A stretch of DNA of 64,000 bases from positions 224,001 to 288,000 of the forward strand of contig JBMNLI010000010.1 in NCBI GenBank assembly GCA_050952645.1. The letters run 5' to 3'. Within the stretch, counting starts at the first letter, position 1. Each line of letters starts with the position of its first letter. The translations under genes were made by a program, and so were the position numbers. Origin of the DNA: Bdellovibrionota bacterium. GTDB taxonomy: Bacteria > Bdellovibrionota_C > UBA2361 > CAKMMH01. The notes beneath the pieces are model-generated. The model ran no database searches and was not told the origin of the DNA. It saw only the letters and a list, made by a program, of their open reading frames with translations. Below, piece by piece: positions 55,701 through 61,303 of this stretch.

Positions 55701-55780
55701 AAAAAAAATAAGGCGTCCTTTCGTAAAAAAGGGCGCCTCTTAGGAGCGGTCAGATAGGGATTTATAATTCCTAAAAAATT

Positions 55781-55810
55781 CGGCATAGTCGTTGATATTC
55801 GGCTATGCCG
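55781..55810 (-). terminator. Terminator hairpin after the recombinase
   Basis: CGGCATAGTCG-N8-CGGCTATGCCG flanked by A and T runs. Confidence 0.7.
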
Positions 55811-55819
55811 TTTTTTCGT

Positions 55820-57472
55820 TTATTTTGGTAAGTCGATAGCACCAATGCAGTTATAGAAAATTTGAATCCGCTGGGTTCTGCGGCCATCTACCTTTTCAGC
55901 CTTGAATACTATAATTTTGTCAATGAACTCTCGAATAATCTCTGCATCCAATTCTTTAATTTCTGTGTACTTTTTAACCAGTGCCAAAAATCGGTCGGTA
56001 TTGAGGGACTGTTCATTTGCTATATCAATAGTACGCTTTAATTTGATTATCCTTTCTTCCAGGACCTTCTGCTCGGCTTCATATTCAGCCGACATCTTGT
56101 AAAAACGCTCTTCGGGAATTTTGCCCATCACATTGTCCTCATATAGTTTCCGAATGATTTTGTCTATGTCAGCAATGCGAGTCTGTGCTTGTTCATACTC
56201 CTTTTGACTTTGGCGGAGTTCTTTGGCAAGTTCCTTTTCTGAATTATTCGTAACTATACGGATGAATTCCTGTTCATGGTCTTTGGCAAAGGAGGTTACA
56301 CGTCTTAAGTCTTCTAGCAAAAGCTGTTCCACTACAACATTGCGTATCTGATGTGAACTGCACATACCCTTTTTCTTGCGGTAAGTAGCACAAACGAAAT
56401 ATTCCTTATCGTGTGTCCATCCCTTGCCTCTAACCTGATACAGCTTTGCTCCACAGTCGGCACAAAACATCATGCCAGAAAGCATTCCCATTTCACCTAA
56501 TCGCGATGGTCTTCGCTTGCCATCTCTGATTTTCTGCACTGTTTCCCAAGTGCCCTCATCAATAATTGCTTCATGGGTATTTTTGAAAACCAGCCAATCT
56601 TCTGGATTGTTCAATATCTTGACTTTGCTCTTATATGACTTTTTAGAAGTCTTGAAATTTACCGTGTGACCTAGATATTCCATTTTAGCCAAAATATCTG
56701 CTACGGTACGAGCCGACCAAGCATATGGGTTTTCAGGTGGTCTTGCTGGAGTGTTAATACCCATTTTGCGAAGATGAACCGTAGGTGTATCAATGCATCG
56801 CTTTTCAAGTTGCTTTGCTATCTGCGTGGGTCCAAAGCCAGCCATGCACAGTCGGAAAATATCTCTGACCACTTCGGCGGCTTTCTCATCTATAATCCAG
56901 TGCAACTTATCTTCAGGGTCTTTAATATAACCGTAAGGTGGATTGGTGCAGAGTGGCTTACCGGATTGTCCTTTGGATTTGAACACAGCACGGATTTTCT
57001 TGCTAGTATCCTTAGCGTACCATTCATTAATAATGTTAAGAAACGGTGTAAAGTCACTGTCTGCTTGGTTTGCACTATCAATACCGTTGTTAATAGCAAT
57101 AAATCGTACATCTGCTTCAGGAAACATAATCTCGGTATAATAACCTACTTTGAGGTAATCCCTGCCGAAGCGGGACATATCCTTGATGATAATCGTTCCG
57201 ATTCTACCGGACTCTACATCTGCAATCATGCGGTTAAAGTCTGGTCTATCAAAAGTTGTACCGCTGACCCCATCATCCACATAAAATTCGATGTTACGAA
57301 AACCGTTGTCCTCAGCATATTTCTTTAGAATTGCCTTCTGGTTTACTATACTGTTGCTGTCCCCTGCAAGCTCATCATCACGGGAAAGCCTGCAGTAAAG
57401 AGCAGTAATTTTCGCTTCTTCAAATGCTAATGTTGATTTACGTATAGTGCTAAATGTTGACTGTCTATTCAT
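55820..57472 (-). CDS. Large serine recombinase (TndX/TnpX-like; resolvase + recombinase + Zn ribbon + DUF4368-like)
   Basis: [56 protein letters not shown]. Confidence 0.96.
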
Positions 57473-57529
57473 TTTTCTCCTCCATTTCCGACAGTCTTCA
57501 AGCGGTTTAGCACTATGTATATTACCGTA

Positions 57530-57733
57530 CTACCTTGAAGAAGTCGAGTTGATTTCCGTGGGTTTATATGAACTATCAGATAACTTTGAAAGGCTTTTTG
57601 CGTTGACTGTAATCAGTCGTTTCAGCTTGGAATATGCACTTTCCTTTGCTGAATCGCTTACTCGTGATTCCACCACATAGACCGTACCTCCGATATCGGA
57701 TTTGGTTGTGCGGCTGTTACTTTGATTTTCCAT
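57530..57733 (-). CDS. tnpW: Transposon-encoded TnpW-family small protein (possible directionality factor)
   Basis: IGGTVYVVES..SAKESAYSKLKRLI; AGGAGG RBS; immediately upstream of the recombinase. Confidence 0.75.
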   Translation of the reverse strand: MENQSNSRTTKSDIGGTVYVVESRVSDSAKESAYSKLKRLITVNAKSLSKLSDSSYKPTEINSTSSR

Positions 57734-57808
57734 ATCGTGACCTCCTGTCCGATGTTTTGAAGGAACTGGCACTGAGCCGAATTGATGACCCAGTACCTAA
57801 TCCATTAT

Positions 57809-58708: not shown

Positions 58709-58737
58709 AATCGTTTACCTCCTAAATTTTATTAAAT

Positions 58738-58836
58738 GTGGGGTATATACCCCGTTTGAAACCGCGTTTTTTTACACGTTGCCCCACGCCCGTTGTCCAG
58801 ATGAAAAGGTGTGGAGATTTGACCTCCCCTAGGGGC
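58738..58836 (-). other. Putative phage cos packaging region
   Basis: Minus strand CCCCTAGGGGAGGTCAAATCT...GGACAACGGGCGTGGGGCAACGTGT...CGCGGTTTCAAACGGGGTATATACCCC resembles the HNH-terS intergenic cos region of Firmicutes cos siphophages (pattern recall, not a search). Confidence 0.55.
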
Positions 58837-58886
58837 AGGTATTAACACATGGAGTTGTATCCATTGTTTTCACTGGTTTTAAGCTT

Positions 58887-58974
58887 TGTAGCAAGATGTA
58901 GCAGGTAAAAACTAAACTCTCTATACGAGAGCGATTTTTTATATAACCTGTTTTTCTTGCTACAAGCTGCTACA
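58887..58974. other. Putative replication origin with inverted iterons
   Basis: TGTAGCAAGATGTAGCAGG ... CTTGCTACAAGCTGCTACA flank an AT-rich core directly downstream of the primase-helicase. Confidence 0.6.
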
Positions 58975-58980
58975 CTGTGT

Positions 58981-61303
58981 TTAAATAAGAAGAAATTCTT
59001 CTTCAGTCAGCTTATATCCGATAAGCATTGTGGTCATTCCACCACCAGAACGTGGTCGTTTCCGTTCTACACGGGCGATAGCTGTTAAGGCTTGTTTGAA
59101 GTTTCTTGCATTCTCCGAATAACAGCCATTGGCACTGCACCAACGCTGATACCGGCCATACACTTCGGATGTCCGCACCTCACTGTTAGGACTTTCCTCC
59201 AAGGCATCCTCGAAAAATAATGCTATTTTATCGCTGTCACGCTTATAAGCCTCCGTTGCTGTCTTAACGGAAACAGGTAAAGTCAAGCCTTCCTTCTTTA
59301 ACAGCTGATAGCCTTCAATTAGCCAGTTGAGGATAGCACTCTGATTCTTCGGTTTGGCGAATTCGCGTTTTAAGTTTTTATCCTGCTCGCTTTCATCGAA
59401 GTGTCGTTCAAAAGGGATAATCACCACTCTGCCACTGGAAAACAGCGTCATATCCGTAATAACGGGCAGATAATTGGTGTTGATATACAGCTTAAACTTT
59501 GGTGAAAAGTCAAAAGAATTCTCATGTAGAAACCTTGCGTTGATGGTGTCACCACCCGTCATGCTTTTTACCTGTGCAGCATTTAGGACAAGTCCTCTGC
59601 TAGGTTCGGAGATATTCACAAAGCGTACTCCTGCAAGCCGGGCAATATCTTCACTTGGACTTGAACTGTTATTGTTCTTTTTCAGACTGATAGTCTCCGG
59701 CCTTGCGGTACAGCCATAACTGCCTAACACCTTAAGAACGCTCTCACATAGCGTACCTTTACCGTTTCGAGTTGTAGCACCATAGAGAACAAACAGGCAT
59801 TCATACCGAGTGTCTCCGCTGATACTGTAGCCAAAGGCTTTTTGGAGGAATTTTGCCTTTTCCTCATCTCCGCTCATAATCTCATGAATAAATCTATCCC
59901 ATCGCTCACTTTTTGCTTCTGGGTCATATTTAACACCAGATATCTTTGTAAGTCTGTCCTCGCTGTTGTGGGGACGAAAATCCATAGACATTAAAAACAA
60001 GGTGCCATTGGCACAGTTGAGCATCTGCGGGTCTTGGTCAAATTCAGCCATTGATATGGGATATACGCTCTGTGCATCCTTAAGTACCGTTTCTCGGTAT
60101 CTTCTTGACTGCCACTTTCGGCAATAGTCAATGTATGCCTTTCTTTGATGTTCATCCTGAATAGTCAAAGCATAGGTTAGCAGTTGGTTAGCCAATGATT
60201 TACACATTTCCATCACTTTGAGATTACCGACATCAGGAATCCAAATGCCATTCTCATAGCAAAACCACATCTTCCTTTCGGGAACAAAGCGGGCTAAAGA
60301 TTTATAATAATCAGCAAACAGCCTGCTTGCCCCAATATCCGTCCAAGGGTAGCGATCGTTACTCTCAGGCTTAAAGTCAGCAAGGGAACATTCTCCAAAA
60401 TCTTCTGTAGCTGATGAACGCTTACCACCTGGTTTGTATATTTCAGTAGCATTTGCGATTGCTTTTTCTATGGTTATCATTCCATAAGTGCTGCCAGACT
60501 GCGGTCTATTCCATTTATCCCTCATTAAGCCGCTTTTTCGGAAAAGTCTGTCCATCTGTCCAATATCCCTGCCACACCAAAATGCCAGCATACCGCAAAG
60601 TGCCAAATCAGCTTCACTGGCAGAAGCATAACCAGATGTATCTCCCTGCCATAATGCTTTGAACCTTTCTCCATTTGCCGATTTTAAAGCCTTCTCAATA
60701 ACAGACTTGTCAGACAAATAGGATTGACTTTCTGCATCCAGAATTTGCTTCACAGGGGTAGGACGCAACATATACTTGTCTAGTATCATCTGTAATTCAT
60801 ACGATTTCTCCGCTATATCACCATCTGCAAACATATTTCCCGTTACGGTAACAAATCGGTTTGTTGCCCCTGATACATAGATCTCAACTCCTAGCTTTCT
60901 GTGTTGACATAGTATTTTGCTTTGTCGAAGTCATAGCCTGTGGCCTTAAAGAAAATATGAAGCCCTTTTTCAGATGGACTGTGTTCCATATAGCAACCAC
61001 TAAAAGCCTCTACAACATTTTGGGTAACAGGCTTAAGCTTACCACCACTATCAAAGCAATCATCTAAGTCGATAACACATATGTCATTACCCACCAAAAA
61101 TCCGATACTATCATAATCACTTATAGCAGCTACCGCTGAACTAAAATCTTTAAATGTACCACGTTGATTTGGTTTTGCCCTTTTCCTGTTACCGGGTTAT
61201 AGGGAACTTTGGTTTTTCTACCACTTCGCTCTTCATATTTCCAACAGCAAAACTGTGGCTTACTTTTGAGTATCTGTGGCAAGTTATCATATTGTGGTTT
61301 CAG
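58981..61303 (-). CDS. Primase-polymerase / D5-type SF3 helicase (P4-family primase), two apparent frameshifts in the 5' part
   Basis: N-terminal [56 protein letters not shown]alker [13 protein letters not shown] start after AGGAGGTGA. Confidence 0.88.

Follow-up and report, generated by a model that had tools for sequence, protein, structure and literature searches.

Which kind of mobile element joins a replicase, a packaging-like site and a single phage capsid gene to a large serine recombinase, and how did it reach a genome outside the Bacillota? The question is raised by a 64,000-nucleotide stretch of DNA (hereafter the window) from a genome assigned to the Bdellovibrionota (GenBank assembly GCA_050952645.1, contig JBMNLI010000010.1, positions 224,001 to 288,000), which carries an element of 12,387 bp that extends past the window end. 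On the minus strand the element encodes, in this order, a primase-helicase, a 272-nt non-coding interval, a capsid protein, TnpW and a large serine recombinase. A preliminary description, made from the letters of the window, had read these parts as a minimal satellite that mimics the cos packaging site of a helper phage. The parts, their strand and their order are borne out by Pfam-type domain matches, by iterons and by a cos profile match. A minimal satellite, and not a decayed prophage, is also what conserved synteny, purifying selection and the absence of portal, protease and large terminase (TerL) genes beside the short capsid genes argue for. Judged from sequence, the island is likely to be a cos-type satellite of temperate phages of the 'Candidatus (Ca.) Heliusvirales' type.

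A helper-type cos-like site beside a predicted replication origin

A cos profile built from 34 phage sequences has a single match in the window (58835-58739, 75.8 bits), and the next best match in the whole genome scores 8 bits. The best DNA matches of the 272-nt interval are the HNH-adjacent regions of Heliusvirales-type phages, phi1605 and Javan phages (E 2e-10, 3e-7); in phi1605 the cos-like site lies between the HNH gene and the Terminase_4 gene. The exact two-box pattern of the site occurs at 70 loci on viral contigs, of which 52 show a phage HNH/terS context, 17 are satellites and one is a capsid-less island, and across 41 near-identical copies no part of the interval is as conserved as the cos boxes. 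On the phage side, the left box has matches in SfV, SfI, SfII, SfIV, ST64B and Pm34, which we take to be cos phages, at most about 90 nt from an end of the record; these matches are weak (E 0.5-6) and are telling by their position. By similarity and position, the element appears to possess the cos site of its helper, as phage-inducible chromosomal islands (PICIs) do.

The same interval holds the predicted origin of replication. Its inverted iterons (58887-58910 and 58951-58974) vary in sequence and yet keep their pairing in 35 of 39 relatives, each compared with two shuffles. The origins of PICIs are described as iterons 3' of the primase gene (PMC6092414; here and below, published systems are taken as set out in the available part of the cited text), and the element combines primase and origin in the same way, with a frameshifted primase gene in the Bdellovibrionota copy. 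In relatives the intact primase has 767 residues, and its ratio of nonsynonymous to synonymous substitution rates (dN/dS) is 0.142.

A truncated capsid protein with a shortened loop

Residues 4-299 of the capsid protein align to residues 92-402 of the capsid of phi1605, a phage of the helper type. The protein lacks about 88 residues of the delta domain and keeps an N-terminal remnant of about 24 residues, whose short helix contains the invariant pair F11-W12. The delta domain is needed for the assembly of HK97-type capsids. The predicted structure has the HK97 fold (pLDDT 90), with gene transfer agent (GTA) and phage heads as the best structural matches, and the best 40 phage matches listed are 41-45% identical and belong mostly to the Heliusvirales-type group. 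The 51 short capsids split from 10 full-length ones with an approximate likelihood-ratio support (SH-aLRT) of 99 in a quick unrooted tree search.

A hairpin loop near residues 215-221 comprises 12 residues in 50 of the 51 short capsids and 13 in the remaining one, compared to 16-17 residues in all 30 full-length capsids (among which L293 is counted), and this amounts to a family-wide deletion of five residues. From the HK97 structure, the loop presumably lies at the tip of the A-domain, in the center of the capsomer. In the Staphylococcus aureus pathogenicity island SaPIbov5 the A-domains pack at the capsomer center, and the island's capsid homologue Ccm forms pentamers and cannot build heads alone (PMC8569155). 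The deletion suggests a structural specialisation of the satellite protein.

With a dN/dS of 0.085 over 56 unique sequences and 0.12 over the first 24 codons, the capsid is, by this measure, under purifying selection. Because these loci were found through capsid peptides, their intactness is biased. A search from the primase side identified 7 of 301 genomes with a primase of at least 90% identity; the adjacent capsid gene is intact in four of the seven loci, contains a stop in one, is truncated in another and lies at a contig edge in the last.

Distribution of the family and co-occurrence with presumed helper phages

Our survey of the family covers 132 loci reached through the capsid or its alignment, many of them on short contigs. 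The order primase-origin-cos-capsid is conserved, without TerL or portal, across capsids of 40-99% identity. None of the short-capsid loci matches a portal, protease or TerL, and all nine loci with such matches have a capsid of 384-403 residues. A cos-profile match of at least 15 bits is present in 90 of 97 short-capsid loci and in no shuffled sequence; 88 of the matches are no more than about 1.1 kb upstream or downstream of the capsid start. On contigs long enough to show it, the short capsid mostly follows a primase of about 770 residues, and a few loci have another replicase or a truncated primase.

Some relatives depart from the common layout. In the short-capsid islands L234 and L273 a DUF3987 protein takes the place of the NrS-1/D5 primase as replicase, and in a large gut-metagenome lineage (L231-L270) the cos-profile match lies downstream of the capsid gene in reverse orientation. 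At G168:C1:336000-362500 (L305, L306) three 9.1-kb primase-cos-capsid islands are arranged head to tail, 97% and 90% identical; the gene after their capsid resembles, by reading, the tyrosine-recombinase gene of L210.

A capsid scan of GTDB genomes yielded 64 loci, and 51 of these are full-length, with 95-99% identity. Dozens of genera of the Bacillota have near-identical copies, with core DNA identities mostly of 94-98%; they belong to Clostridia, Bacilli, Erysipelotrichales, Tissierellaceae, syntrophs and others, and several genomes hold two or three copies (L012/L017/L018 and L044/L054). Sequencing runs with the element come from digester, manure, landfill, compost and soil metagenomes. A Micrarchaeota locus on a 2.7-kb contig without flanks (L005) and a partial locus in Verrucomicrobia (L064) are not counted as cross-phylum evidence.

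Do carriers of the satellite also carry the presumed helper? A TerL of the Heliusvirales type (E <=1e-200) is found in 18 of 44 Bacillota carriers and in 30 of 297 sampled Clostridia (p=1.6e-6), whereas the pac-type TerL used as control is not enriched (6/44 vs. 66/297, p=0.24). The carriers represent 48 of the 64 loci, after omission of eight same-genome duplicates, two short contigs and six divergent loci, less four non-Bacillota genomes; three carriers were taken out of the background, and at least two others (G051, G075) remained in it. Within one sample of 300 genomes, the helper TerL is present in 5 of 12 carriers vs. 27 of 287 other genomes (p=0.005), with the center genome excluded and one broken and one partial capsid counted as carriers. 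Both the satellite and a TerL of the helper type are present in culture-collection strains: Robertmurraya andreesenii DSM 23948, Clostridium aciditolerans DSM 17425, Haloimpatiens lingqiaonensis KCTC 15321 and Aneurinibacillus aneurinilyticus ATCC 12856.

Boundaries and integration

Both attachment ends, whose location the preliminary description had proposed as a check, fall on an AA dinucleotide, and identity to relatives delimits the element to positions 55,740-68,128 (Table 1). The end at 61303 given in that description was wrong, since the element also includes a helix-turn-helix (HTH) gene and a type I restriction-modification cargo, hsdM/S/R; the description had likewise overlooked that this cargo serves defence, which group the helper belongs to, that the primase is broken and that the host lies outside the Bacillota. 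Terminase, portal and tail genes were looked for beyond the window edge, where the contig continues with hsdS and hsdR, the left attachment end and host genes; a degraded prophage continuing past the window is rejected. No tail, lysis, portal or large terminase gene lies in the element, and the genome (93.75% complete) yielded neither a TerL or portal gene nor a second capsid gene. Among the open reading frames (ORFs) of the element there is no match to a relaxase or a type IV secretion system; a genome-wide search and a search for oriT were not made. The GC content of the element is 39-44%, compared to about 31% for the genome.

Table 1. Features of the element in window numbering; positions beyond 64,000 are continued along the contig (C10).
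Feature	Position	Strand	Basis or remark
Right attachment end, with AA crossover dinucleotide (+ strand: TT at 55740-55741) and attP inverted-repeat arm	55740..55762	-	identity of relatives stops here
Terminator-like hairpin after recombinase gene	55781..55810	.	consensus scan only
Large serine recombinase, 550 aa, intact (Resolvase, Recombinase, Zn ribbon, DUF4368)	55820..57472	-	domain matches
TnpW-family protein (PF14202), probably 67 aa from ATG at 57733	57530..57733	-	longest ORF starts 57772; dN/dS 0.35
Short HK97-fold capsid protein, 299 aa, intact (PF05065, E 5e-77)	57809..58708	-	domain match, fold model
cos-like packaging site resembling HNH-terS intergenic region of Heliusvirales-type phages	58739..58835	-	profile and DNA matches
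Predicted replication origin: two inverted iteron sets around AT-rich core	58887..58974	.	directly 3' of primase gene
NrS-1-like primase-polymerase / D5-type helicase (NrS-1 HBD, D5_N, Pox_D5)	58981..61282	-	domain matches
Bipartite motif upstream of primase, resembling sites before helper early operons	61513..61555	-	lead only
Cro/C1-type HTH gene (HTH_26), divergent from primase, heads cargo operon	61871..62152	+	domain match
Type I methyltransferase gene hsdM, one frameshift at ~63131	62136..63726	+	domain match
hsdS, start	63723..64000	+	remainder beyond window end
hsdR, one frameshift at 65307	ends ~67,980		beyond window end
Left attachment end	~68,107-68,128		beyond window end; identity limit to relatives

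Together the ends make up an inverted repeat with AA at its center, and the right-end arm pairs with the left-end arm in the joined (attP) form present in one IMG/VR contig (L066/L145). Integrase, attachment sites and excision circle are traits of PICIs, here with a serine, multi-targeting enzyme instead of a tyrosine one. The recombinase (dN/dS 0.060) belongs by sequence to the multi-targeting TndX-like clade, and such a clade of DUF4368 recombinases has been described (PMC10083194). TnpW may, from its position, act as a directionality factor. Target sites of the element differ each time; common to them are the AA core, an A-tract and a T-tract at +11/+12, the last in 95-96% of 56 half-sites. 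The 56 different right half-sites share this motif only, which sets the element apart from PICIs with their unique, species-specific attachment site; an AA core with an A-rich 5' and a T-rich 3' side is the published target motif of the multi-targeting recombinase Cp36 (PMC10083194). By our reading, the AA core lies inside the loop of a terminator hairpin at 11 of the 17 distinct sites that were rebuilt, while in the Bdellovibrionota copy it is placed just 5' of one. The terminator loop was considered as an obligatory target and rejected, because this copy and several others lack it and the T-tract is the constant feature.

The integration module is exchangeable. Relatives carry TnpW with the recombinase, a serine-recombinase pair, a Tn916-type Xis-Int module or a tyrosine integrase, the last in the canonical PICI order int-repressor-xis-primase in L160, L179 and L207. 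Since these relatives keep the primase-origin-cos-capsid core, the serine recombinase is rejected as a defining trait, and the serine-recombinase/TnpW chassis, which the preliminary description had put forward as the novelty, loses that standing, all the more as satellites with serine recombinases are already published.

Cargo, regulation and the state of this copy

The cargo varies within the family. Among 20 scanned proteins, three of them unmatched, we found type I, IIG and III restriction enzymes, OLD, PDC-S15 and PbeA. A conserved 322-aa protein accompanies the type III restriction genes in L023, L029, L031, L037, L039 and L050 (~420-1650); the L023 copy has no PADLOC match, and the protein is a candidate uncharacterised defence gene.

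In this copy, HTH_26 is the only regulator-type gene and is located at the end opposite the recombinase; no AlpA, MerR or Stl gene stands beside the integrase. A homologue of HTH_26 is present in a Heliusvirales phage. The bipartite motif upstream of the primase is only a lead, because its training sites and thresholds were chosen by the analyst: a strict pattern missed the element and gave three phage matches vs. 1.06 in shuffled sequence, and a weight matrix from nine satellite sites gave 15 phage matches vs. 10-18 in shuffles at 14 bits. At 20 bits, the matrix found four phage matches, all intergenic and in sense orientation, and one in the element, with none in 19 of 20 shuffles. A sigma-70 promoter scan stayed at chance level, and an Rfam search of 53,000-64,000 gave no significant match. 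Contigs of the element, aligned to the window, occur in two DNA and two RNA runs; neither cos ends nor the excision joint were seen there, and transcription is not thereby established.

Compared to the intact copy L011, the Bdellovibrionota copy has four single-base frameshifts, two in the primase gene (~60901 and ~61180) and one each in hsdM and hsdR, while recombinase, TnpW and capsid are intact. These frameshifts may be assembly errors, because a host gene of the window, which we take to encode a FadL-like transporter (45638-47032), is also split over frames, as is another gene, presumably for a PHP-like phosphatase (23469-24300); both suggest single-base errors in the assembly. Elsewhere in the window, an ORF at 4115-5416 with a YADD motif reads, we assume, like a group II intron reverse transcriptase/maturase. 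At 20119-23355 a methyltransferase-like ORF is followed by a methyltransferase-like start fused to an AAA/OLD-like region, by our reading possibly a second defence islet.

A host outside the Bacillota

The preliminary description had assumed a Firmicutes setting, and the host genes place the genome elsewhere. Its Rho shares 95% identity with proteins under the label Bdellovibrionota or Pseudomonadota and 86% with proteins labelled Deltaproteobacteria, and the clusters of its S41 protease agree with this placement. The genome encodes ComEC. On the right, the element is flanked by a host-specific repeat, followed by genes that are syntenic in a same-genus genome. The interspersed repeat (~130-210 nt, with internal inverted repeats; 55395-55700 in the window, C9:42995-43739, C10:104115-104523) has dozens of copies and tandem arrays in the genome and finds hardly a match in three relatives. 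The left flank begins with two orphan ORFs (184 and 133 aa; C10 292151-293164, L274:6152-7165), without a family and without a match in three relatives, and host repeats and host-lineage genes resume about 1.5 kb out. The core of the element is absent from the 30 relatives searched.

Two further phyla are represented by contigs with flanks. In a Saccharimonadia contig the element is inserted exactly into the terminator loop of rplL, with host-type genes on both sides; in a Caldisericales contig the right flank is of host type. Both genomes are metagenome bins, and the Bdellovibrionota genome may be one too. As a suggestion for the route only, we assume that contact-dependent predators or epibionts with a capacity for DNA uptake are among these hosts. 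Because no terminase or portal was found in this Bdellovibrionota-like diderm host, the copy in the window is probably stranded. We infer that the element more probably came in with a carrier replicon, or as DNA that was free or stemmed from prey, and was then fixed by the relaxed recombinase, than that it arrived through normal infection by a phage.

Proposed life cycle and competing explanations

How would such a satellite live? Tentatively, a helper activator with sigma region 4, or the loss of repression by the HTH protein, may switch on the operon of primase, capsid, TnpW and recombinase, possibly through a site resembling those in front of helper early operons and sigma-region-4 genes, which is a lead only. 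The element would then excise, with the primase-helicase very likely replicating the circle from the iterons, and the HNH, TerS and TerL proteins of the helper would probably cut at the satellite cos. The delta-truncated, short-loop capsid protein should be unable to build heads alone. On balance we expect it to co-assemble with the helper capsid protein, most likely as pentamers like Ccm, which would give small heads for a genome of about 12 kb and exclude the helper genome of 45-75 kb. The relaxed recombinase could then integrate the element at terminator-like sites in almost any genome.

By analogy, we lean towards a satellite capsid that makes the helper heads smaller, a view tempered by EcCICFT073, a PICI of E. 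coli whose lone capsid gene can be deleted without detectable phenotype and which uses full-size heads (PMC6092414), so that a lone capsid need not remodel heads at all. Other observations weigh against our interpretation as well. The capsid is not obligatory, because sister islands continue differently after cos: L321 has the order primase-cos-terS (55% to the helper terS), and L135 the order primase-cos-HTH-recombinase pair without capsid or head gene. The 17 distinct elements measure 10.3-12.9 kb, a range that supports a size constraint weakly since it is censored at about 13 kb by the 10-kb flank limit, and many of the 97 short-capsid loci are near-duplicates. The cos match in the window is not independent, because the phage loci of the profile were chosen by a pattern derived from the element; the matches in divergent relatives are independent. 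The co-occurrence test ignores kinship and habitat, many carriers being metagenome-assembled genomes from digesters, and its completeness filter is unverified; no helper TerL was found in 26 of the 44 Bacillota carriers nor in the Bdellovibrionota genome. One copy is located on a 396-kb plasmid of Bacillus badius, the sole match among 72,556 plasmids, and the near-identical lineage is found in Clostridia, in Bacilli and in three further phyla, which is more than the usual host range of one phage. The single attP contig could also stem from a tandem copy.

Several explanations compete with a head-shrinking satellite. The cos satellite may be real and its concatemers may fill full-size helper heads, with the truncated capsid only poisoning helper assembly or serving another role. 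We regard this as possible, though rather doubtful: the silent capsid gene of EcCICFT073, marine satellites packaged as concatemers in full-size heads (PMC9618062), the existence of capsid-less and terS-bearing sister islands, and the loss of most of the delta domain, unlike in Ccm, all speak for it. On the other hand, the whole capsid fold is kept under a low dN/dS with a confident HK97 model, the family-wide loop deletion points to specialisation, and elements with different cargos are similar in length (mostly 12.3-12.9 kb, upper end censored). It is improbable that the island is instead a self-replicating, multi-targeting defence transposon that travels on plasmids, on integrative and conjugative elements or by natural transformation, with cos and capsid as an anti-phage or relic module and packaging not its main route. 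The TndX-like DUF4368 recombinase, the multiple copies per genome, the plasmid copy, the copies with host-type flanks in three non-Bacillota phyla and the ComEC of the Bdellovibrionota host would fit such a transposon. However, relatives without a TndX-like recombinase keep the origin-cos-capsid core, the cos boxes hardly vary, the matching helper is enriched among carriers and pac phages are not, and no relaxase-like ORF lies in the element.

That the island is a decayed Heliusvirales prophage is very improbable. Its order of HTH and restriction-modification cargo, primase, cos, capsid and recombinase is colinear with the helper genome, and the Bdellovibrionota copy has its four frameshifts, but the primase is of the NrS-1/D5 type vs. 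the VapE type in the two helpers checked, the same minimal layout recurs across divergent capsids, all four core genes evolve under purifying selection, and the element has its own attachment ends with many target sites. The presence in a Gram-negative genome could, with the family itself being real, be an assembly chimera of the metagenome bin, which we consider unlikely. For a chimera speaks that metagenomes from digesters and manure contain the element in abundance and in polymorphic form, and that single-base errors or lesions occur in the assembly. The two orphan ORFs, unmatched in three relatives, occupy the first ~1.1 kb outside the left end, no hairpin around the AA core results when the two flanks are rejoined, and no junction-spanning read was seen. 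Yet both junctions lie exactly on the AA core with flanks that fit the motif of A-tract, AA and T-tract, host-specific repeat and same-genus synteny follow on the right, host repeats and host-lineage genes resume on the left, and the Saccharimonadia contig shows an exact terminator-loop insertion between host-type genes.

Returning to the satellite, our full proposal is held with less assurance than its parts on packaging and head size, and we offer it as a possibility: an undescribed large family parasitises 'Ca. Heliusvirales' with an independently evolved, delta-truncated and short-loop pentamer capsid that shrinks heads, and one lineage with a relaxed recombinase has thereby brought restriction-modification cassettes, 94-98% identical in DNA, to different Bacillota classes and also to Bdellovibrionota-like, Saccharimonadia and Caldisericia genomes in which no helper was found. 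Satellites of phages that infect Clostridia have barely been described. If the proposal holds, 'Ca. Heliusvirales', among the most widespread phage groups of gut and digester, would have a common parasite that moves defence cassettes between distant hosts, and its capsid would be a second, independent size control of the Ccm type, marked by two sharp changes, the loss of most of the delta domain and the five-residue loop deletion. The near-identical non-Bacillota copies raise the separate question of how a satellite crosses phyla.

Comparison with known systems

The helper group is defined by nine 'Ca. Heliusvirales' marker genes, among them TerL, portal, protease and DNA polymerase, and the word 'satellite' is absent from the main text of that account as far as it is available (PMC11283538). 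As the element lacks TerL and portal and its capsid is truncated, it is no prophage of this group. Phage Phi-m46.1, which we assume to be akin to the helper group, has been transferred across species (PMC4288039). The satellite family is apparently undescribed: we found no prior description in the literature, with supplements (SatelliteFinder File S4, the recombinase database of PMC10083194) outside the search, nor in the available text of PMC11318856, 10.1101/2024.11.15.623857 and 10.1101/2024.01.18.576133. Satellites with a serine recombinase and satellites with a lone capsid gene are each published (PMC9618062, 10.1101/2020.12.28.424599, PMC10085698).

Tn4451-type mobilisable transposons carry a relaxase, and none is present among the ORFs of the satellite. 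In its DUF4368 recombinase with TnpW the satellite resembles them (PMC10083194). Its domain set, AA core and A-rich 5'/T-rich 3' motif are those of Cp36 and other TndX-like DUF4368 recombinases, whereas PMC10083194 deals in its available text with enzymes and not with a satellite of cos and capsid.

Gram-negative cos PICIs such as EcCICFT073 and the PICI model of SatelliteFinder share with the element the iteron origin 3' of the primase, the cos mimic, a lone putative capsid gene and accessory genes (PMC6092414, PMC10085698). Unlike them, the copy in the window has no AlpA, MerR or Stl beside the integrase and no terS, and its recombinase lies downstream of the capsid. PICI-like tycheposons, module 3 of the VEIMEs (integrative mobile elements packaged in virions) and PICI-like elements (PLEs) resemble it in having a serine recombinase (VEIME module 3, PLEs and a minority of tycheposons) or a lone capsid gene (tycheposons); they differ in marine or Vibrio hosts and other helpers, VEIMEs lack a capsid protein, and PICI-like tycheposons lack cargo (PMC9618062, 10.1101/2020.12.28.424599). 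Capsid-forming PICIs (cf-PICIs) are likewise small islands with an HK97-fold capsid gene and near-identical copies across genera (10.1101/2025.02.11.637232), but they encode TerL and head-tail proteins (PMC10085698), and of the TerS, TerL, portal, protease and head-tail genes typical of cf-PICIs the element has none.

The closest likeness is to SaPIbov5 and SaPIbov4 with Ccm and their helper phi12. These islands, too, copy the helper cos, lack a terminase of their own, place primase or rep before the origin, encode one HK97-fold capsid homologue and measure ~12-14 kb (PMC5052747, PMC8569155). They differ from the element in the helper group, in the site-specific integrase that is replaced here by a distal multi-targeting serine recombinase, in the cargo, which here is restriction-modification and other defence, and in the hosts, which here are Clostridia, Bacilli and non-Bacillota phyla. 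Ccm has 355 residues, 87 of them in its delta domain, and shares 24% identity with the helper capsid, compared to 299 residues, about 24 N-terminal residues and 41-45% identity for the satellite capsid; a capsid homologue with its own cleaved delta domain, a feature of the Ccm type, is lacking here, with some 88 residues missing. Packaging and capsid remodelling are inferred, and by analogy the element may work in the manner of SaPIbov5 and Ccm.

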